The notes under the pieces are model-generated. The model did no database searches, was not told the origin of the DNA, and saw only the letters and a list, made by a program, of their open reading frames with translations. 64,000 nucleotides of DNA from Candidatus Acidiferrales bacterium (lineage in GTDB: Bacteria; Acidobacteriota; Terriglobia; Acidiferrales; UBA7541), in NCBI GenBank assembly GCA_035603395.1, contig DATNKM010000063.1, positions 3,065-67,064 of the forward strand, in the 5' to 3' direction. Positions 21,281-30,117 of the stretch are shown here, one piece after another (the first letter of the stretch is position 1; each line of letters opens with the position of its first letter). The position numbers were made by a program, and so were the translations under genes.

Positions 21281-21618
21281 TTTCCTGTGTGTCTGTATTC
21301 CTATGCGATGCTGATACTTACAAGCGTTTTGTGGCGAATAGCTGCTATCATCGCCTCGAGTGCCTCCAATTGGGGCTTTTCCCGGCCGTCGATCGTCTCT
21401 TTGCGGCGAACCATGCTCCGGGCCGGCGCATCCTAACCGTCATCGCCGGAAATCGTGCGGCAGGGAACAGGCGGCTGCCGCCGAACGAATTCGCGTTACA
21501 ATGGGGCCGCGATTTTTGATCCGAGCGTGGGGAGGCGGAATTGGCTTATCGATCCGGTGAATTGGGCGCGAACGAGTCGCGCCGGAGCGCTGCGGAGACA
21601 GCTGCAGGGAGGGGGAAT

Positions 21619-22422
21619 GTGTACCGTTTTCTGCTCGTGTGGGTGTTCGCTCTAGTGGCCAGCTTCTCGGCGAGCATGACGGCTGGCGCACAGCCCCCGA
21701 CCGGGCCCGCGCAGTCGAGTGCGGCGCCGCTAACATCGGGCGCGAAATCGGCTACGCCGGTGAACCCGGGGACTTCTACGGCCAAACCGATCGCGAGACC
21801 GGCTCAGGTGCTCGGCGCGCCGGTGAAAACGTACGGATCGAGCAGCGCTCCGATCACCATGGAAGTCTTCACGGACTATGAATGTCCCACGTGCAAACGA
21901 TTGTTCGAAGAGACGCTGCGCCCAATGATTTCCGACTACGTGGCGGCCGGCAAGGTCTACCTGGTTCATCACGATTTTCCACTGCCGATGCACAAGTACG
22001 GATATGAAGCGGCGCGGTGGCTGAACGCGTCGGCCCGCGTGGGCCAGTTCCAGAACGTGGAGGCGGCGCTGTATGACCATCAAGAATCCTGGGCGGCCGA
22101 TGGCGACATCGGAAAGTATGTGGCCGGAGCGATGTCCCCAACCGAGTTCAAGAAGGTCGAGACGCAAATGCGCGGCTGCGGGCTTGGCGCGCCGGCGGCG
22201 GTAAAATCGGCGAGCTTCGCCCTGGGAAGCCAATCCGGTTCCGGGGATGCCTGCGCGGTCGATTCCTATATCGAGGCGGATCGAGCGCTCGGCAATCAAA
22301 TTCCTGTTACCGGCACGCCGACGTACGTGATCAGCTACAAGGGTCACAGGTTGCCGGCCGGCTCGGGTGTTGTCAGCTGGCCGATCCTGAAACAATTTTT
22401 CGATTCGTTGCTGAGCCAGTAG
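21619..22422 (+). CDS. DsbA-family thioredoxin-like protein (secreted)
   Basis: FTDYECPTCKRLFEETLRPMISDYVAAGKVYLVHHDFPL (CxxC). I place the start at GTG 21619, after GGGAGGGGG, giving the signal peptide VYRFLLVWVFALVASFSASMTAGA. The track start is TTG 21541. Confidence 0.75.
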   Translation: MYRFLLVWVFALVASFSASMTAGAQPPTGPAQSSAAPLTSGAKSATPVNPGTSTAKPIARPAQVLGAPVKTYGSSSAPITMEVFTDYECPTCKRLFEETLRPMISDYVAAGKVYLVHHDFPLPMHKYGYEAARWLNASARVGQFQNVEAALYDHQESWAADGDIGKYVAGAMSPTEFKKVETQMRGCGLGAPAAVKSASFALGSQSGSGDACAVDSYIEADRALGNQIPVTGTPTYVISYKGHRLPAGSGVVSWPILKQFFDSLLSQ

Positions 22423-22444: not shown

Positions 22445-22978
22445 ATGAGCAACGATACACGACGCAGACTCGGGCGAATTGTGGTGATCGTCGCGCGCGT
22501 GGCGCTGGCGGCGATTTTTCTGTTCGCGGCTTATGCGAAGATGAAGCCGCAGCCTGGAATGCCGTGGACGCCGGGTTCCGTGCGCACGTCGCTTTCGATG
22601 TTCGCGATCGGCGTGGATTCCTACGAGATGCTGCCGCCGTGGGCGGTGAGCCCTTTCGCGCATTTCCTGCCTCCGTTTGAGCTCTTTCTGGGGCTGTGGC
22701 TGCTGAGCGGATATGGCATGCGATTTTCAGGGTTGGTGTCGACAGCGCTGATCTGCGCATTCATTCTGGCGATGTATTCAGCTTACCGGCGCGGGCTAAC
22801 CATCAGCTGCGGATGTTTCGGCCAAGGCGCTCAAATCGGAATCATGGAGTTGATTCGCGATGGCTTGCTATTCCTGCCGCTCGCGCTGATCGTCACGATC
22901 GGCGGTTTCGTGACCAAGCGAAATCGAACCGGTTCAACCCTGCCGCAATCCTCCGCCTCCGTCAGCCACGCGGATTAA
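22445..22978 (+). CDS. MauE/DoxX-family membrane protein
   Basis: Four predicted TM segments, N-terminus RVALAAIFLFAAYAKM, and a CGC motif (ISCGCFGQGAQIG). It starts 22 nt after the DsbA-like gene. Confidence 0.65.
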   Translation: MSNDTRRRLGRIVVIVARVALAAIFLFAAYAKMKPQPGMPWTPGSVRTSLSMFAIGVDSYEMLPPWAVSPFAHFLPPFELFLGLWLLSGYGMRFSGLVSTALICAFILAMYSAYRRGLTISCGCFGQGAQIGIMELIRDGLLFLPLALIVTIGGFVTKRNRTGSTLPQSSASVSHAD

Positions 22979-23985
22979 TTTTTCGTTTCTCCCGACGGGA
23001 GTCTTCGCAGATATTCACCCAGGTGACGACTGAATTCCTGCGCGCCCGCGTAGGTGAGGTGCAAAGGATCCTCGAAAGAATTTTCATCGGGCATCCAGTG
23101 GCTGGCGTCAACGTACTGGGCGCCGATTCCGCCGAGCATTTCTCGGAGATGCGCGCGATATCCCGCCGACCATTGCGGCTGGTCGTAAAACAGGTGCACG
23201 TGATCGGGCGGCATGGGCATTTCGACGAAATAGACATTCGCGCCGGCCGCTTCTGCTTGCAGTGCGATTTCGCGGATCGACGGAATCAGCGGATTGCGCC
23301 TAGCGCGCCCGCATTCGGCGATGAACTCCGACGCGCTGGGATATTCCAGCATCGCGAAATCGACTGAGCGGCCCATCGAATTGGATTTTTCCGGAGGCAT
23401 GCCCTGCTGTGCCAGGGCACGGCGAAACAGTTCGACGCGCTCCCAGACTGTGCCGCGGTCCTCGAACAGTTCAAAGTGGCGCATGATTTCGAACTCCGCG
23501 CGATCGTGCGGGGAAAGATGGTAGTAGCGGCGCGCATACTCCGGCTCCATGTAATAAAGCATTGCGCGATTCCCGATCAGGTCGCGCGTCGAGTATTCGA
23601 GCGGATGCGTGAGCGTGAAATCGAAGAAGCCGAAGATGACCGTGCGCGGGCGCAGTCCCTGCTCGAGGGCGTAACGCAGCATCAGCAGCTGCTCGACGCC
23701 GCTGGATCCTCCCATCGCGAGGTTGATCGAACCCGGCAGTTTGCCGACGCCCATGCCCGCGTCGAACGATGGCTCGTTGAAGCCCACGCCGATCAGGGAA
23801 TTGCCAAGGGCGATGGCTTGCGCGCCTCTGGATTGGCGCACTCGTCCCATCGTCCAGCGGGGAATCGTGTTCCGCGACAGCCGCGCGACCTCGCGATCCA
23901 GCGCCGCCAGCATCAGCACGATTCCCGCAAGGGCAAGAATAAAAATGCGCTTCGGTGCGTCCAATATTCCGACCTTTGAGCTCAA
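22975..23985 (-). CDS. Membrane-anchored SGNH/DltD-like acyltransferase or esterase (hypothetical)
   Basis: N-terminal TM (RIFILALAGIVLMLAAL), an ALGNSLIGVGF segment (GxS block), and a C-terminal EDPLHLTYAG (DxxH block). TTG start at 23985, with AGAGGA 10 nt upstream. It starts 15 nt after the small ORF's stop. Confidence 0.5.
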   Translation of the reverse strand: MSSKVGILDAPKRIFILALAGIVLMLAALDREVARLSRNTIPRWTMGRVRQSRGAQAIALGNSLIGVGFNEPSFDAGMGVGKLPGSINLAMGGSSGVEQLLMLRYALEQGLRPRTVIFGFFDFTLTHPLEYSTRDLIGNRAMLYYMEPEYARRYYHLSPHDRAEFEIMRHFELFEDRGTVWERVELFRRALAQQGMPPEKSNSMGRSVDFAMLEYPSASEFIAECGRARRNPLIPSIREIALQAEAAGANVYFVEMPMPPDHVHLFYDQPQWSAGYRAHLREMLGGIGAQYVDASHWMPDENSFEDPLHLTYAGAQEFSRHLGEYLRRLPSGETKN

Positions 23986-24000
23986 AGCCCTTTTTCCTCT

Positions 24001-24186
24001 TCAGAAATCGATGTAGATGAACTTTGAGCTCTGGCCCGAGAAAACGTAGATCGCGAGCGCCAACGCTGCCCACCAGATCGCCCAAAACCACCAATGCTCC
24101 ACGCGAATCCCAAAACCAGGAGGCGGGTCGTCCTGCGCTCCGCCCATGTAGTCGAAAGCATGCTTCAGCCAGTCGAGAATGGTCAT
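24001..24186 (-). CDS. Small single-pass membrane protein ending in FIYIDF (DltX-like candidate)
   Basis: MTILDWLKHAFDYMGGAQDDPPPGFGIRVEHWWFWAIWWAALALAIYVFSGQSSKFIYIDF. The ATG at 24186 lies 4 nt after the MBOAT stop (the alternative TTG at 24198 overlaps it). There is one TM helix and a short tail carrying the terminal F-x-Y-x-x-F motif. Confidence 0.55.
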   Translation of the reverse strand: MTILDWLKHAFDYMGGAQDDPPPGFGIRVEHWWFWAIWWAALALAIYVFSGQSSKFIYIDF

Positions 24187-24190
24187 CGCA

Positions 24191-25375
24191 TTAGCCAATC
24201 AGAAGTCTCCGGAAAAAATAAAGCGCCGTGTGGACGTCCATGCAAAAAAACGCCCAGGCGAAATTTACGGCCACGTAGGTGAGCAACCACGATCCAAGCT
24301 GCGACCACAGCGGCGGCCGTGCGTCCGGGTCCAGAGGACGAATCTGCCGCCACATGCGCCGTACGACGAGCATCACACCGTGCAACAGTCCCCACACGAT
24401 GAAATTGACGCCCGCGCCGTGCCAGATGCCGCTGACGAACATCGTCACCAGAATATTTGCGTACACCTGGCCGGCGGCGCGCCGCGATCCGCCCAACGGA
24501 ATATAGATGTAGTCGATCAGCCAGCTGGTGAGCGACATGTGCCAGTGCCGCCAGAATTCCGTGATGTTGGTGCGCAGATACGGCCAGTCGAAATTTTCCG
24601 GCACGCGAATGCCGAACAGCCGCGCCGAACCGATGGCGATGTCGGAGTAAGCCGAAAAATCAGCGTAGATCTTGATGCCGTAGGCGAAAAGCCAGAGCAG
24701 CAGGATTGGGCGATACGCGCGGCTGATGTCCGCTGAGTTCAGGTGGCTGGTGTAGGCCGTGAGGACATCGGCGATCGCGAATTTTTTGACCAAGCCGGTG
24801 AGAATGCGCGTGACGCCGCGCTGCCAGTCGATCACCCATGCGCGGGAAATGCCGCGGAGCTTCGGCAGGAAGTCCTGGTATCGCTTGATCGGCCCGGCGA
24901 CCATGGTGGGAAAAAACAAAATGAACGCGAGGTACTCGGTGGCCGTGCCTTCCTCGGTTTTGTTCTTGTATCGATCCACCGCATAGTGAACGAATTCGAA
25001 GGTGAAAAACGATATCCCCAGCGGCAGAAATGCGTTTCGCCAATAGAGAGGGTTGTGCGCCGCGTCGTGCCAGACAAGGCCGGTAAGAAAGTTTCGGTAT
25101 TTGAAGAGGACCAGAAACACCACCGTCTGCGTGACTCCGAACCAGCACACCCACGACGCCGGCTTGTAGAAGCGGCTGACGAAAGATTCCCACAGGAAAA
25201 TAGCGAGGCAGGCGGCTCCGGCGATGCCTCCGAATTGCGTGTACGAGAAATAAGTGAAGAACAGGCCGCCACTCAGGAACATCACCCACGGCCGGCGCTC
25301 CGGGCTTGCGGCGCGGCAAAGTATGGCGCTCGGGATCAGGAAGAAGAGGTAGTAGTCCCAGCTGTTGAAGATCAT
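24191..25375 (-). CDS. MBOAT-family membrane-bound O-acyltransferase (AlgI/DltB-like)
   Basis: 394 aa, polytopic, with RHWHMSLTSWLIDYIYIPLGGSR and FVSGIWHGAG (the conserved MBOAT His region). Confidence 0.85.
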   Translation of the reverse strand: MIFNSWDYYLFFLIPSAILCRAASPERRPWVMFLSGGLFFTYFSYTQFGGIAGAACLAIFLWESFVSRFYKPASWVCWFGVTQTVVFLVLFKYRNFLTGLVWHDAAHNPLYWRNAFLPLGISFFTFEFVHYAVDRYKNKTEEGTATEYLAFILFFPTMVAGPIKRYQDFLPKLRGISRAWVIDWQRGVTRILTGLVKKFAIADVLTAYTSHLNSADISRAYRPILLLWLFAYGIKIYADFSAYSDIAIGSARLFGIRVPENFDWPYLRTNITEFWRHWHMSLTSWLIDYIYIPLGGSRRAAGQVYANILVTMFVSGIWHGAGVNFIVWGLLHGVMLVVRRMWRQIRPLDPDARPPLWSQLGSWLLTYVAVNFAWAFFCMDVHTALYFFRRLLIG

Positions 25376-25554: not shown

Positions 25555-26493
25555 TTAGTCGCCGTTTACGGTGGGGGCCGCGGCGCTGGCTATTTTGTCG
25601 GCGGGAGTCGGGTTAACGTTCCGTAGGTAGCGCCAGGGATTTACCGGCGTATTGTAGATGCGGACTTCGTAGTGAACGTGCGGCCCGGTTGCGCGGCCGC
25701 TGTTGCCTTCGTAGCCGATCACATCGCCCGACTTCACATGCATGCCGCTCTGCACGTTGAAGCCGGAAAGATGTCCGTACCAGGTGGTCACGCCAAATCC
25801 GTGGTCGATCACGATCAGGCGGCCATAACCGGCGCGCTCGTCAACTTCCTCGATCACACCGTCGGCGGTGGCGCGTACCGCGTCGCCATAGTGCGAAGCA
25901 ATATCGAGACCGGCGTGGAACGCGCCTTCACCCGAGAACGGGTCAAGCCGCTCGCCAAAATGACCGGTAATCTGCCCAACCACGGGCCAGAGCGAAGGAA
26001 TAATCCCGAGCGTGCTCAGCTGAGCCGCGGGAAGCAGCCGCATGCCGCTGCCGGACATGGACACGGCGGTCACGTTTTTCTGCAAATAGCTGAACTCGTC
26101 GACTGAATTCTGGAACGCGGCGCCGTCGTCGGCCACGGGAGCGGAGTCGGTCAAGCCGAAGGGAGTCTGCCGGAAACGGTTGATGCCGTAGGCCATGGCG
26201 ACTTCGCCGGCCAGCGACTGCAACGAATTCAAGCGCTGATTGGTGTCCTTCACCTGCGTCTGCAGCTGCACGTACTGCTGCTTCAGGTTGTCCTGTTCGC
26301 GACGCAGAGAATTGTAACTCGTGGCTTTCCAGAGCATGCGGGAGTAGGATCCCATTCCTGCGGCGACGGTGATACCACCGACAACTGCAAGCACCGCCAC
26401 CAGATGCAGGACGTACCAGGGCAGGCGCACCCGTCGCATTCCGCCGGTGGCGTTGGAAGCAATAAAAAACGTGTAAGAAGGCTTGCCCTTCAT
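25555..26493 (-). CDS. M23-family metallopeptidase
   Basis: N-terminal TM, a coiled-coil region, then HAGLDIA...GYGRLIVIDHGFGVTTWYGHLS...GNSGRATGPHVHYEVR (HxxxD and HxH motifs). Confidence 0.85.
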   Translation of the reverse strand: MKGKPSYTFFIASNATGGMRRVRLPWYVLHLVAVLAVVGGITVAAGMGSYSRMLWKATSYNSLRREQDNLKQQYVQLQTQVKDTNQRLNSLQSLAGEVAMAYGINRFRQTPFGLTDSAPVADDGAAFQNSVDEFSYLQKNVTAVSMSGSGMRLLPAAQLSTLGIIPSLWPVVGQITGHFGERLDPFSGEGAFHAGLDIASHYGDAVRATADGVIEEVDERAGYGRLIVIDHGFGVTTWYGHLSGFNVQSGMHVKSGDVIGYEGNSGRATGPHVHYEVRIYNTPVNPWRYLRNVNPTPADKIASAAAPTVNGD

Positions 26494-26779
26494 CGTTTTT
26501 CTTCCGCTCTGTGCTTACTTACTTCGGCCGTCCAACCGTCCGCGCCTTGAAACGATTGGCCGTATTCCTCAGAATCCTGCGATCATGAGTCTGAACCGAG
26601 AGCCCTGGTCCGAAACCCGCCGATTGTAGCCACCGTCGCCGGTGGCGTCAACCGTTGATCCGACGTTTTCCACAGGCTGCCGGCCTTGGGGTTCTGGCCG
26701 GGCGCTCTGGACTGCGAGCCGCCTAACGATTACTTTACCCTATTGGCGGAACGCTTCACAACTGTACGGAAGGACAGGT

Positions 26780-27793
26780 TTGAATCAGGAAGCCCAATTG
26801 ATCGAAAGGATTGCGAAGGCCGTGCCGTCTGTTCGAGGCACGCGCGGCGGTGCCAAAGCTCGGAGAGGATTGCGGCTTGGCATCGGCGACGATGCCGCCC
26901 TTCTCGCAGCCGGCAGACGCGACGAGTGGGTCTTGAGCTCGGACGCACTGGTGGACGGGATCCATTTCCGTGTCGACAGCGATCCGCCGGATTCGGCGGG
27001 GTACAAGGCGCTGGCCCGGGCCACGAGCGATCTGGCGGCCATGGGTGCCGAGGCCCGGTTTTTCCTGCTGACACTGGCGCTGCCGGCTGACCGCACCGGC
27101 GCGTGGCTCGACGCGTTCTTGCGCGGGATGAGCCGGGCGGCGCGGGAGCTTGGCATGCGGTTGGCCGGCGGGGATACCACTCGGAGCGACCAGGTCTCGA
27201 TCAGCATTACGGTGATTGGCGAGATCGGCCGGGGGCTCGCCGTAAAGCGATCGGGAGCTCGGCCCGGCGACCGGATCTATGTCAGCGGGCGGCTGGGACG
27301 AGCGGCGCTGGGGCTTGCGCTAATGGAAGCGCGCGGGCGCGCTGCCAAGTTACCCGCGCCGCTGCTCAAGCCACATCTTTACCCGGCGATTCGGATCGAG
27401 CTGGGCGGCTGGCTCGCGCGACATCGCCTGGCTTCGGCAATGATGGATATTTCCGACGGGCTTTCGACCGATCTGGCGCGTCTCTGCGGGGCGAGCGGGG
27501 TCGGCGCGCAGCTGGCCGCCGAGCGGATTCCGTGCGTCAGAATTCCCGCTGCGGCCACGCGAGTGCTGCGCGGCAAGCCGCTCGACCCGCTGCGCATGGC
27601 GCTTCACGGCGGCGAAGATTACGAACTGCTATTCACGGTGCCTCCTGGGAAAGTGAAGCGGCTCCGAAGAGCGCCGGGGTTCGCGCAGCTTGCGGCCATC
27701 GGCGAAGTCCAACGCGGAACGCGAATTACGATTGTCGACGGGGAAGGCAATCGCCAAGAGCTCGAGCCGCACGGCTGGGATCCGTTTTCCTAG
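26780..27793 (+). CDS. thiL: Thiamine-monophosphate kinase
   Basis: IGDDAALL...DALVDGIHF...GYKALARATSDLAAMGA...GGDTTRS are the ThiL/AIR-synthase-related motifs. I prefer the TTG start at 26780, after GGAAGGA, giving 337 aa. The track ORF start at 26642 looks over-extended. Confidence 0.85.
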   Translation: MNQEAQLIERIAKAVPSVRGTRGGAKARRGLRLGIGDDAALLAAGRRDEWVLSSDALVDGIHFRVDSDPPDSAGYKALARATSDLAAMGAEARFFLLTLALPADRTGAWLDAFLRGMSRAARELGMRLAGGDTTRSDQVSISITVIGEIGRGLAVKRSGARPGDRIYVSGRLGRAALGLALMEARGRAAKLPAPLLKPHLYPAIRIELGGWLARHRLASAMMDISDGLSTDLARLCGASGVGAQLAAERIPCVRIPAAATRVLRGKPLDPLRMALHGGEDYELLFTVPPGKVKRLRRAPGFAQLAAIGEVQRGTRITIVDGEGNRQELEPHGWDPFS

Positions 27794-27819
27794 CCGCGGC
27801 ATCCTGCCGGCGCTACACA

Positions 27820-30117
27820 CTACTGCTGGGGTCTTGCCGGCGGCGGTGCTGCCGGAGCGGGAGCGGCTGAAGGTGCCAAGCCCTGCTCGGCGGCGTCAGC
27901 GGGAGGCGCGGTGTCCGGCGTATCGACCTGCACGGGATGCTCGCCGGCCTGTTTTTCGAGCGGAACGACATTTTGAAATGGCTCGACCGGCATGCCCTGC
28001 ATGGCCTGCTGCATGAATTCGATCCAGATCGGCAGCGCCGCGCGGGCCCCGGTTTCCTTCTTGCCCAGCGAAACGTGCGCGTCGTTGCCCACCCACACGC
28101 CGCAGGTAATCTGCGGAGTGAAGCCAATGTACCAGGCGTCGGTGAAGTCGTTGGTCGTGCCTGTCTTGCCGCCCGACGGCCGCCCGATTTCCTTCGCGCG
28201 CACGCCAGTGCCGAACTGCACCACTTCCTCGAGCATCGCCACCATCGTGCGCGCCACTTCGGGCGGAATCACGTCCGTCACGTTCGGGCGCTGATCTTCC
28301 ATCACGACCCCGTCATAGGACGTGACGCGGCGCAGATAGTGCGGCTCGATGTGAATGCCGTCGTCCGGGAAAACCGTGAACCCGGATGTGTGTTCGAGCA
28401 GCGTCAGGTCCGCGGCGCCGAGCGCGAGCGGTAAGACCGGGGGCAGCGGGCTCTGCAGTCCGAATTTCCGCGCCAGCCCGATGGTATTCTCGATGCCGAC
28501 TTTGTCGAGCAGGCGCACTGCCGGCACGTTGCGTGAATCGGCTAGCGCGCGGCGCAGCGTGATGCGCCCTTCGAATTTTTCGTCGTAGTTGTGAGGCGAA
28601 TAATCCTGGCTGCCGGTGTGGAACGTAACCGGCTCGTCGAGCACCGTGTCAAACGGCGAGGCGCCCTGCGCCAAAGCTTCGGCGTACACGTACACCTTGA
28701 AAGAGCTGCCGGTTTGCCGCATGGCCTGCGTGGCGCGGTCGAATTTCGAATCCTCGAAATCGTAGCCTCCGACGAGAGCTTTGATTCCCCCGGTGGCGTT
28801 GTCGATGGCGACGAGTCCCGCCTGCGCGATGGGTACTTGCTCAAGCTCGACCTCGGCCGCGGTCCCGTTGAGCTCCTTGATCTGCACGGTGACCAGATCG
28901 CCGGTTTGCAAAATCTCGGCGGCGGCTTTGTGTCCCGTCCAGGCGAAATCCTGTGGCGTCAGCAGCGCCCGGTATGGACCGATTTTGATGTAGGCGAACG
29001 TCGGCTGCACGGACGTCACCAGCCCCGTGACGTAATCGGCTTTCTGAATGGGCGCCTTCCAGTCGTCGTTTTGGTAACTGTCCAGCGTGCCCAGATGGTC
29101 GCGAAGAATATTCGGGAGATTTCCGCGCCACCCATGGCGCTGATCGTAAGCGTGCAGCCCGTCGCGCACGGCTCGGTCGGCAGCCTTCTGCATGTCCACG
29201 TTGAGTGTGGTGTACGCCCGCAGCCCCTGTTCGTGAACGGCGGCGGTGCCGTAAGTGTGCTCGAGATACTGACGAATTTCTTCCACGAAATAGGGCGCCA
29301 GATCGTTCCGCAGCGATTCCACGTGCAGGCCGAGCGGGAGCTTTTCGGCGGCGTCCGCGGCGGTTTGCGATACCTTCCCGTCGTGCGCCATCAGCGAGAG
29401 CACCAGATTGCGGCGGTTGCGTGCGCGGTCGGGATGAATGATGGGCGAATAGACCGGGCCACGAATGATCGCAGCCAGTGTGGCAGCTTCGGCCAGCGTC
29501 AACTGGCCGACGGGCTTGCTGAAATAATATTCCGAGGCGGCCTCGAATCCGTAGTTGCCGGAGCCGAGATAGATCTGATTGCAGTACATCGTGAAAATCT
29601 GTTCTTTGGTGTAGTGCCGCTCGATTTGGAGCGCGAGCATCGTTTCCTGAAGCTTGCGGTGCATGCTGCGGTCGCTGCGATTCAGGAACAGGCCGCCGGC
29701 CAGCTGCATGGTCAGCGTGCTGGCGCCTTCGGCCACGCGGTGGCTCACGATATCGCGCCAGGCTGCTTCCAGCACGCGCGGGAAATCCACGCCCCAGTGC
29801 TGCTCGAAATGCTGGTCTTCGGTGGTGATGATTGCGTCGCGCAGCACGGGCGGAATCTGATTGTAGGTGACCAGGATGCGGCGCTGCAGCGCGAACGTGC
29901 CGACGGATTGTCCGTCGTCGGCGTACAGCTCCGTGACGATCACCGGGCGATAGTTTTCCAGCGCGTGGATTTCCGGCAGGTCGCTTGAATAGACGAACAG
30001 CAGGCCGACCGCCGCGCCGAATGCGACCGCACAGCACAGCAGGAACGCAAACGCCAGGCGGCCCAGCGTGGTGCCGCCCCCAATCTTCATCGTTGCGCGA
30101 TAAAATCTTTCATCCAC
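27820..30117 (-). CDS. mrcA: Penicillin-binding protein 1A (bifunctional transglycosylase/transpeptidase)
   Basis: GT51 motifs (ITTEDQHFEQHWGVDF, GASTLTMQLA), the transpeptidase SxxK (GSSFKVYVY) and KTGTTN, and an N-terminal TM anchor. Confidence 0.9.
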   Translation of the reverse strand: MDERFYRATMKIGGGTTLGRLAFAFLLCCAVAFGAAVGLLFVYSSDLPEIHALENYRPVIVTELYADDGQSVGTFALQRRILVTYNQIPPVLRDAIITTEDQHFEQHWGVDFPRVLEAAWRDIVSHRVAEGASTLTMQLAGGLFLNRSDRSMHRKLQETMLALQIERHYTKEQIFTMYCNQIYLGSGNYGFEAASEYYFSKPVGQLTLAEAATLAAIIRGPVYSPIIHPDRARNRRNLVLSLMAHDGKVSQTAADAAEKLPLGLHVESLRNDLAPYFVEEIRQYLEHTYGTAAVHEQGLRAYTTLNVDMQKAADRAVRDGLHAYDQRHGWRGNLPNILRDHLGTLDSYQNDDWKAPIQKADYVTGLVTSVQPTFAYIKIGPYRALLTPQDFAWTGHKAAAEILQTGDLVTVQIKELNGTAAEVELEQVPIAQAGLVAIDNATGGIKALVGGYDFEDSKFDRATQAMRQTGSSFKVYVYAEALAQGASPFDTVLDEPVTFHTGSQDYSPHNYDEKFEGRITLRRALADSRNVPAVRLLDKVGIENTIGLARKFGLQSPLPPVLPLALGAADLTLLEHTSGFTVFPDDGIHIEPHYLRRVTSYDGVVMEDQRPNVTDVIPPEVARTMVAMLEEVVQFGTGVRAKEIGRPSGGKTGTTNDFTDAWYIGFTPQITCGVWVGNDAHVSLGKKETGARAALPIWIEFMQQAMQGMPVEPFQNVVPLEKQAGEHPVQVDTPDTAPPADAAEQGLAPSAAPAPAAPPPARPQQ

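Follow-up and report, generated by a model that had tools for sequence, protein, structure and literature searches.

A separate DltX-like microprotein between an MBOAT and a DltD-like protein in an acidobacterium points to an acyl-tyrosine relay with a split shuttle

What would a gene set resembling dltB, dltX and dltD do in a diderm bacterium, when neither dltA nor dltC lies nearby? This question is raised by a stretch of 64,000 nucleotides of contig DATNKM010000063.1 (assembly GCA_035603395.1, Candidatus Acidiferrales bacterium; hereafter the window), in which three closely spaced, co-directional open reading frames (ORFs) on the minus strand (22975-25375) encode an MBOAT acyltransferase, a microprotein and an SGNH-like protein. 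In the Dlt pathway, DltB transfers D-alanine from the phosphopantetheine of DltC to DltX, onto the Tyr that is invariant in its FxYxxF motif, and DltD accepts it on a Ser and then delivers it to lipoteichoic acid (PMC12148441). PatA auto-acetylates the same motif from acetyl-coenzyme A (acetyl-CoA), the motif being fused C-terminally on extra helices, and PatB takes over the acetyl group (PMC12148441). The acyl-Tyr relay of Dlt and PatAB was elucidated between 2023 and 2025, and the prevailing view is that a separate microprotein and a carrier occur in Dlt only, while elsewhere a fused motif is combined with acyl-CoA. By analogy with these systems, we consider it likely that the window module is a tyrosine relay in the style of DltB, DltX and DltD that is fed by acyl-CoA and O-acylates a polymer outside the cytoplasmic membrane. 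The relay type itself is already known; what appears new is best described as the split shuttle in a CoA-type MBOAT-SGNH acyl-tyrosine relay of diderm bacteria, the split build being known to date only from the D-alanylation of teichoic acids in Gram-positive bacteria. Literature searches for DltX-like, DltB-like and DltD-like proteins and for MBOATs with FkbH retrieved no description of such a module. An earlier, sequence-only reading of the locus had taken small-partner motifs to be proposed for other MBOAT/SGNH pairs; the literature instead reports that MBOAT-SGNH pathways other than Dlt have no microprotein of the DltX kind, the motif being part of the MBOAT chain itself (PMC12148441).

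The anatomy of the three genes, with their motifs, starts and spacings, proved correct in every detail of that reading. The MBOAT gene (24191..25375, minus strand) encodes 394 amino acids and ends in a TAA stop. Four nucleotides past this stop lies the ATG of the microprotein gene (24001..24198, minus strand), at 24186, giving 61 amino acids; an alternative TTG start at 24198 overlaps the MBOAT gene by 8 nt, gives 65 amino acids and is the sole available start in some homologues. The TGA stop at 24001-24003 directly follows the codons for F-I-Y-I-D-F. The gene for the N-anchored SGNH-like, DltD-like protein (22975..23985, minus strand), assigned by fold and by weak Pfam matches, starts with a TTG at 23985, 15 nt beyond the microprotein gene and preceded by GAGGAAAAAGGG, and encodes 336 amino acids; a second TTG at 23964 gives 329 amino acids and is the start used by most homologues. 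The three adjacent genes are probably translationally coupled, and their arrangement lies far beyond anything that chance would produce. A simple promoter and terminator scan gave no signal above background within the locus. Proteins identical to these three are on record as HXO88175.1, HXO88174.1 and HXO88173.1, from a 'Candidatus Acidoferrales bacterium' metagenome-assembled genome (MAG); public annotation calls the microprotein, like almost every copy of the SGNH-like protein, a 'hypothetical protein'. A CarboxypepD_reg/OMP-barrel protein encoded elsewhere in the window is compatible with a diderm host.

The microprotein consists of an N-terminal helix, an acidic Pro-rich linker, a Trp-rich transmembrane helix and a C-terminal tail. 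Its AlphaFold2 (AF2) model shows helices at residues 3-14 and 25-60 (predicted local distance difference test, pLDDT, 77), the tail of the long helix being of low confidence. The C-terminus GQSSKFIYIDF (24004..24036, minus strand) is invariant in the microprotein alignment A1 and contains Tyr58 (24013-24015, minus strand), the acyl acceptor proposed from tail conservation and by analogy. Homologues formed 69 clusters at 90% identity in a word-indexed search, and 142 clusters at 50% identity in a hidden Markov model search of 1.84 billion representative proteins that used no word index. The word-indexed search and a genome scan by the pattern GQSSKFIY both favour motif-bearing sequences, and we therefore retested the conservation without the microprotein as bait. 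To this end, a metagenome scan with alignment A4 of the SGNH-like protein yielded 80 loci, 70 of them with enough upstream DNA. A microprotein gene was found directly upstream of the SGNH-like match in 70/70 loci; 68 were intact and ended in GQ[ST]SKFIYIDF, and 2 were frameshifted. Over all loci, the last 12 codons occurred in 122 DNA variants; each tail codon varied synonymously, with Ser AGY/TCN switches and all three stop codons represented, and the one amino-acid change was Ser to Thr. Selection thus acts on the peptide and not on the DNA. Since it is present in all SGNH-baited loci and its tail is conserved, the microprotein is a real gene, and the sequence-only reading, which had made its case depend on the conservation of the small ORF and its terminal Tyr motif, holds up at this point. 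In the most distant branch of the family one Trp of the membrane helix and the terminal F-x-Y-x-D-F are invariant, and a Gly five residues ahead of the motif is nearly so.

By its sequence the microprotein resembles a DltX-type shuttle, being a single-pass protein encoded beside an MBOAT that ends in FxYxxF with an invariant Tyr. Its tail KFIYIDF is nearer to the KFIYNEF of Lactiplantibacillus plantarum DltX, whose C-terminus reads NQAKFIYNEF (PMC13653941), than to the fused MBOAT ends examined (FLYFxF or FIYFQF). The Pfam model DltX (PF12459) gave no match to the window microprotein at E<=10 and matched 1/26 family members, weakly (E=0.012). Searched against 1.84 billion proteins, the microprotein profile did not reach DltX of Bacillota at E<=1e-3, and common ancestry of the two therefore stays unproven. 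Might the microprotein instead be a structural or assembly subunit, like small subunits such as KdpF, with a tail that serves as a binding epitope and a Tyr58 that is never acylated? Conservation alone fits binding as well as catalysis, and the whole 11-residue tail is invariant, not the Tyr alone. Yet it is precisely F-x-Y-x-D-F that the most divergent relatives retain at the extreme C-terminus, and F-x-Y-x-x-F is the motif shown to bear the acyl-Tyr ester in DltX and PatA (PMC12148441). We regard a purely structural role as highly improbable.

The MBOAT matched PF03062 with 112.1 bits (cut-off 27, E=4e-32) and contains the segments RHWHMSLTSW, with His279, and SGIWHGAG, with His319. The codons of both were checked: His279 in WHMSL (24539..24541, minus strand) aligns with residue 289 of Streptococcus thermophilus DltB, and His319 in IWHGAG (24419..24421, minus strand) aligns with His336, the catalytic residue of DltB (PMC11035591). 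In length the protein is like DltB, and its C-terminus (...FFRRLLIG) carries no FxYxxF extension; the fused PatA/AlgI-type reference MBOATs have 469-494 amino acids and end in FLYFxF. Its nearest solved relatives by sequence are the DltB structures 8jem and 6bug (E ~3e-32), and its sole NCBIfam match was the DltB model TIGR04091, with 182.6 bits, about half of the cut-off of 375. On the contrary, its core (residues 119-351) shares 39-44% identity with fused AlgI/PatA-type MBOATs versus 30% with DltB. The alignment further showed that it has YIPLGG[SN]R between the two His motifs in common with the PatA/AlgI-type fused enzymes. The motif P-L-G-G-S-R-R (24479..24499, minus strand) lies at the aligned position of the hydrophobic horizontal helix HC of DltB, in which Met302, Val305, Ile306, Met309 and Lys312 dock DltC and for which Arg317 is also listed (PMC11035591). 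The docking helix itself is not found in the window MBOAT, where the aligned segment reads YIPLGGSRRAAG. Judged from these comparisons, the MBOAT is both, DltB-like in its length and lack of fusion and AlgI/PatA-like in its core.

The SGNH-like protein has a hydrophobic N-terminal helix, predicted at residues 12-37. Alignment A3 (32 sequences from several phyla, ~33% mean identity) showed Gly61, Ser63, Asn88 and a W-x-x-V-E-x-x-R-R segment to be invariant. Gly61 and Ser63, the putative nucleophile, belong to a G-N-S block (23797..23805, minus strand; codons checked). A D-P-L-H block (23059..23070, minus strand) holds Asp306 and His309, the putative acid and base, which are invariant in alignments A2 and A4 and nearly so in A3, where the exception is an incomplete sequence. 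The block I Ser and the block V Asp-x-x-His are thus conserved in the pattern of the SGNH superfamily, which suggests membership in it. The homologues belong to the precomputed Pfam family PF27429, 'LB_356', a name for which a literature search returned unrelated papers only. The AF2 model, built from 36 sequences, reached a pLDDT of 77 and a predicted TM-score of 0.77. A Foldseek search of the PDB with this model placed DltD of four species (6o93, 7dxm, 6pfx and 3bma) in the top five positions, with probability 1.0 and E 1-2e-4, followed by generic SGNH esterases and acetylhydrolases. According to the model, the protein has a DltD-like fold with an N-terminal anchor. With regard to the Ser-His(-Asp) arrangement that the sequence-only reading asked for in the 336-residue protein, conserved Ser, Asp and His and DltD as the best structural match are in favour of a putative triad. 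Sequence search detected no PDB relative of the protein; the family profile retrieved spurious designed TIM barrels that share WKQVEILRR and weakly matching PAF-acetylhydrolases, all of which we rejected. The partners of plasmid-borne fused AlgI-type MBOATs did not match the SGNH-like profile, and a tblastn search of plasmids with the SGNH-like protein matched nothing.

Are the three genes a unit? A first analysis covered 86 module-bearing loci, 78 of them from species-level genomes with the same microprotein tail. The MBOAT gene lies directly upstream of the microprotein gene on the same strand in 85/86 loci, the exception being a locus whose contig ends just upstream. The SGNH-like gene follows directly downstream in 79/86, often overlapping or with a gap of few nucleotides. 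No neighbour other than the module genes is common to more than 22 of the 86 loci, and from lineage to lineage the surroundings vary but the three genes stay together. Distant microproteins, in L170, L173 and L175, are likewise flanked by an MBOAT and an SGNH-like gene. The module ranges over Acidobacteriota, which make up most hosts, Verrucomicrobiota, Planctomycetota, Armatimonadota, Myxococcota (a Polyangiaceae MAG) and a Coriobacteriia MAG; a few host bins are labelled Eremiobacterota or Saccharimonadales and are possibly mis-binned. Conservation, fold and linkage together support the three-part relay in a diderm acidobacterium that the sequence-only reading had put forward. In the Coriobacteriia (monoderm) MAG the genes run in the order SGNH-MBOAT-microprotein (L174, 4538-7123), and the microprotein has 40 amino acids and is without the N-terminal helix.

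From which donor would such a relay be fed? Adenylating enzymes were not found among 20 scanned window ORFs (19 of at least 312 amino acids and a MauE-like ORF of 177), nor an acyl carrier protein (ACP) or FkbH look-alike among the window ORFs of at least 40 amino acids over 64 kb, and dltA and dltC occur neither in the window nor in the flanks of related loci. Empty scans on all these counts agree with the absence of a ligase and a carrier that had been read from the sequence. A first carrier scan, with Escherichia coli AcpP and Bacillus subtilis DltC as queries and a GxDS regular expression, found nothing and was insensitive, missing ACPs of the WDS type. Repeated with the WDS-type ACPs of L049, L083 and L170 as seeds, the scan detected no ACP or ligase beside ~98 other distinct module loci. 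In these three loci themselves, L049 (Bryobacteraceae), L083 (Granulicella) and L170, an FkbH-domain protein (~600 amino acids) and a small PP-binding carrier of 84-87 amino acids adjoin the module (L049 6604-8656; L083 6683-8729; L170 2774-4848); L049 and L083 have them on the strand of the module, L170 in divergent orientation. The FkbH proteins scored 290-317 bits on TIGR01686 (cut-off 147); two of the carriers scored above the PP-binding cut-off of 20.8, with 25.9 and 26.6, and the third just below it, with 20.6. FkbH enzymes load glyceryl-type units.

The MBOATs of the same three loci (L049 8773-9948; L083 8835-10001; L170 4886-6004) are without GGSR and read VPVARLRVGSWKP, LPVARFPWWSPP and APLSLAFGGAIP at the motif position. 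Of the 101 distinct MBOATs, besides that of the window, whose loci have a microprotein, 97 keep GG[SN]R, as do 4 fused MBOATs, and one close relative has GGSQ instead of GGSR. Over ~100 distinct sequences, a GGSR-type motif is absent only in the three MBOATs beside FkbH and ACP, and none of the GG[SN]R MBOATs, nor the GGSQ relative, has an ACP nearby. The ACP-linked modules support the view that the family can be carrier-fed, and that the segment matching the DltC-docking site changes when a carrier feeds the MBOAT. Their systems would constitute a carrier-dependent envelope acylation other than Dlt. Soluble acyl-CoA, with acetyl-CoA as the default guess, is the most likely donor of the window MBOAT, which has PLGGSRR and for which the 64 kb offer neither a carrier nor a ligase; GGSR is a possible marker of donor type. 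The donor, which the sequence-only reading had left fully open, can in this way be narrowed, while its remark on missing dltA and dltC nearby stands.

Taken together, we propose the following sequence of steps. The MBOAT would take an acyl group from a cytoplasmic thioester, an acyl-CoA and by default acetyl-CoA, and pass it through its tunnel, by way of His319 and His279, onto Tyr58 in the periplasmic KFIYIDF tail of the microprotein, whose transmembrane helix would pack against the MBOAT and the anchor of the SGNH-like protein. The tail would then swing into the DltD-like active site and acylate Ser63, with His309 as base and Asp306 as acid, and the DltD-like protein would finally pass it on to an envelope glycan, at one of its hydroxyls. 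The relay chemistry, with its proposed direction of transfer, would be that of DltB-DltX-DltD and PatA-PatB. Architecturally the module is a hybrid that unites an AlgI/PatA-like MBOAT core of the CoA type with a shuttle encoded separately, as Dlt has it, and with a last enzyme resembling DltD. An N-in/C-out topology of the microprotein is suggested by analogy, because the fused extension runs from a transmembrane helix inwards through a cytoplasmic peripheral helix and a transmembrane helix outwards to the motif, and the microprotein corresponds to its last two helices.

Several points weigh against this proposal. The acyl-Tyr intermediate is drawn from analogy. The N-terminal segment of the microprotein is acidic in the clade of the window and gives no positive-inside support for N-in/C-out; in the distant branch this segment contains Arg and Lys. 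On the donor side, the role of GGSR in CoA binding is likewise a proposal from sequence comparison, the argument draws on three ACP-linked loci from at least two lineages, and the carrier searches covered the window and the locus flanks, so that genes elsewhere in the genome would escape them. A true carrier-dependent pathway of the Dlt type could be hidden there, with a ligase or FkbH-type loader that charges a carrier with an aminoacyl or another acyl group, the carrier then serving the MBOAT as DltC serves DltB. The best solved relative and the only NCBIfam match of the MBOAT are indeed DltB, a split shuttle is otherwise known only from Dlt, and three relatives have an ACP and an FkbH loader beside the same module. 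Nevertheless, this pathway seems unlikely to us: ACP, FkbH and adenylation motif were missing from the window and from the surroundings of the ~98 other loci, IPLGGSRR replaces the DltC-docking helix and the ACP-linked relatives are exactly those without the motif, and the DltB model scored half of its cut-off.

Further points against the proposal concern the last enzyme. Pfam DltD (PF04914) matched the SGNH-like protein with 12.6 bits (cut-off 22.7, E=0.085), in the C-terminal 80 residues only, and Lipase_GDSL_2 with 20.8 bits (cut-off 32.9, E=6e-4), in the C-terminus only. Among the profile matches anticipated from the sequence, that of the MBOAT to PF03062 was therefore obtained, while the DltD match fell below its cut-off and DltX did not match. 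The SGNH-family profile retrieved no DltD from the PDB sequences, and the Foldseek TM-scores to DltD are modest (0.31-0.43). Moreover, in six Armatimonadota loci (L061, L062, L063, L070, L075 and L077) MBOAT and microprotein genes occur without an adjoining SGNH gene. Such loci would suit a scheme in which the SGNH-like protein is a hydrolase that deacylates or edits the polymer, or in which the MBOAT itself acylates the acceptor, with the tail confined to regulation or docking. Most SGNH folds are hydrolases, and esterases and acetylhydrolases are the next-best structural matches after DltD. Tight linkage of the SGNH gene, however, holds for 79/86 loci and extends to distant lineages, L174 with its altered order included, and DltD and PatB, the MBOAT partners of this kind that have been characterised, act as transferases and receive the acyl group from the Tyr motif (PMC12148441). 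We hold hydrolysis or direct acylation to be even less probable than a hidden carrier pathway, and retain the acyl-CoA-fed relay as the preferred explanation. L061 and L063, the longest of the SGNH-less loci, encode a small secreted protein on the opposite strand with a sugar ABC transporter after it, as well as an upstream GGDEF-EAL protein.

How does the module compare with known systems? With DltB-DltX-DltD it shares an MBOAT of ~400 amino acids that bears no motif of its own, a single-pass microprotein from a separate gene whose product ends in K-F-I-Y-x-[DE]-F, and an SGNH-like protein anchored at its N-terminus; among solved folds, DltD comes nearest to the latter. Unlike Dlt, it is without dltA and dltC, its MBOAT combines 30% core identity to DltB with PLGGSRR in place of the DltC-docking helix, and its microprotein, which has an extra conserved N-terminal helix (LEYLGG) compared to DltX, and its SGNH-like protein stay under the Pfam DltX and DltD thresholds. 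Dlt belongs to Bacillota, whereas the module is hosted by diderm phyla without teichoic acids. With PatA-PatB, which O-acetylates peptidoglycan in Gram-negative bacteria, with AlgI/AlgJ/AlgF/AlgX and with WssH-type systems it shares the core identity of 39-44% and YIPLGG[SN]R, together with a diderm host, a likely acyl-CoA donor and a terminal FxYxxF read as acyl shuttle. The microprotein would correspond to the peripheral helix and the last transmembrane helix of the PatA extension, but it is a separate gene, whereas in the PatA/AlgI group the MBOAT chain itself carries the shuttle, on two additional transmembrane helices. Furthermore, the window partner matches DltD and not the AlgJ-like proteins of the fused-MBOAT systems examined. 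The AlgI/PatA alternative, weighed already in the sequence-only reading, accordingly divides: the partner is not AlgJ/AlgF-like, while the MBOAT core is nearer to AlgI/PatA than to DltB and does not have the DltC-docking helix. OatA/OafA-type AT3-SGNH proteins perform the same task, moving acyl groups from a cytoplasmic donor to an extracytoplasmic glycan with an SGNH domain in the last step, but they use an AT3 membrane domain instead of an MBOAT, are single fused polypeptides and have no FxYxxF shuttle. The window proteins stand outside the curated DltB, DltX and DltD families, and by analogy they would be like them in their mode of working.

The acceptor may be looked for in the gene neighbourhoods: several lineages have genes for the synthesis and export of polysaccharides beside the module, and the clade of the window has peptidoglycan enzymes there. 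Neighbours are Wza/Wzz-type export genes with an AT3 acyltransferase in L073, two Poly_export genes in L005, a GT4 glycosyltransferase in L049, an NAD-dependent epimerase/dehydratase in L054 and unrelated genes in L004. In the window, an M23 peptidase gene (25555..26493, minus strand; Pfam Peptidase_M23, E=7e-31) lies 180 nt upstream of the module, and a PBP1A gene at 27820-30117 forms a clade-specific synteny with it. M23, ThiL and PBP1A neighbours each occur in 21-22 related loci, M23 in 22/86, and are restricted to the window clade; the order M23-ThiL-PBP1A recurs in L001-L003, the three loci for which called genes were listed. This context may reflect an operon link to peptidoglycan metabolism. 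As a rough estimate, an exopolysaccharide, capsule or lipopolysaccharide glycan has about an even claim to be the acceptor, and peptidoglycan, in the window clade, a somewhat smaller one.

A wider interpretation, which we offer tentatively and with considerable doubt, is that the module represents a third, widespread MBOAT-SGNH architecture. Here a split DltX-type Tyr shuttle would operate outside Bacillota, GGSR would denote acyl-CoA and loss of the motif an FkbH-loaded carrier (possibly bearing a glyceryl-type unit), and the M23-PBP1A neighbourhood would indicate a peptidoglycan acceptor in the Acidoferrales clade. The locus and its relatives (142 clusters at 50% identity, 78 species genomes) break the dichotomy between Dlt and fused systems by joining a separate shuttle to a CoA-type MBOAT, and a minority of relatives add an FkbH loader and an ACP. 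They offer a natural system for asking what sets donor choice in bacterial MBOATs, with a sequence signature that is open to mutagenesis. A candidate function can also be offered for a 'hypothetical' microprotein family and for the SGNH-like family PF27429, and the module suggests that soil Acidobacteria, an abundant group, modify their envelope in a way not yet studied. Acidicapsa dinghuensis 4GSKX and Acidobacteriaceae bacterium KBS 83, two cultured strains that carry the module, are usable for genetics.

Some individual loci deviate from the common layout. On one Acidobacteriaceae contig (L081), a fused-type MBOAT ending in ...FIYFQF (210-965) lies ~8 kb from a split module; both architectures are thus possible in one genome. 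An apparent MBOAT-microprotein fusion of 469 amino acids in L042 (8777-10186), which as a natural fusion would have counted as Rosetta-stone evidence, was rejected, as it results from a frameshift within the MBOAT gene, whose correct frame stops as usual. Microprotein frameshifts in the metagenome assemblies L126 and L143 are, like that of L042, sequencing errors or pseudogenes. In L070 (Armatimonadota), the 3' end of the microprotein gene (...HMESKFIYIDF and stop) is repeated twice, at 2685-2774 and 2841-2975, within ~400 nt downstream of the intact gene and ~155 nt apart, which could be a duplication or an assembly artefact.

Around the window module, the genes upstream (25555-30117) are those for the M23 peptidase, for ThiL on the opposite strand and for PBP1A, and a sigma-70-like site (TTGACG-17-TACAAT) is found at 26651-26623, upstream of the M23 gene. 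On the other side, a MauE/DoxX-like membrane protein (22445-22978) and a DsbA/thioredoxin-like protein (21541-22422) are encoded convergently to the module, between it and dnaK. MauE/DoxX-like and DsbA-like genes were also seen just downstream of the module, before dnaK, in L001-L003; 17-19 loci share two clusters of opposite-strand neighbours in corresponding positions.

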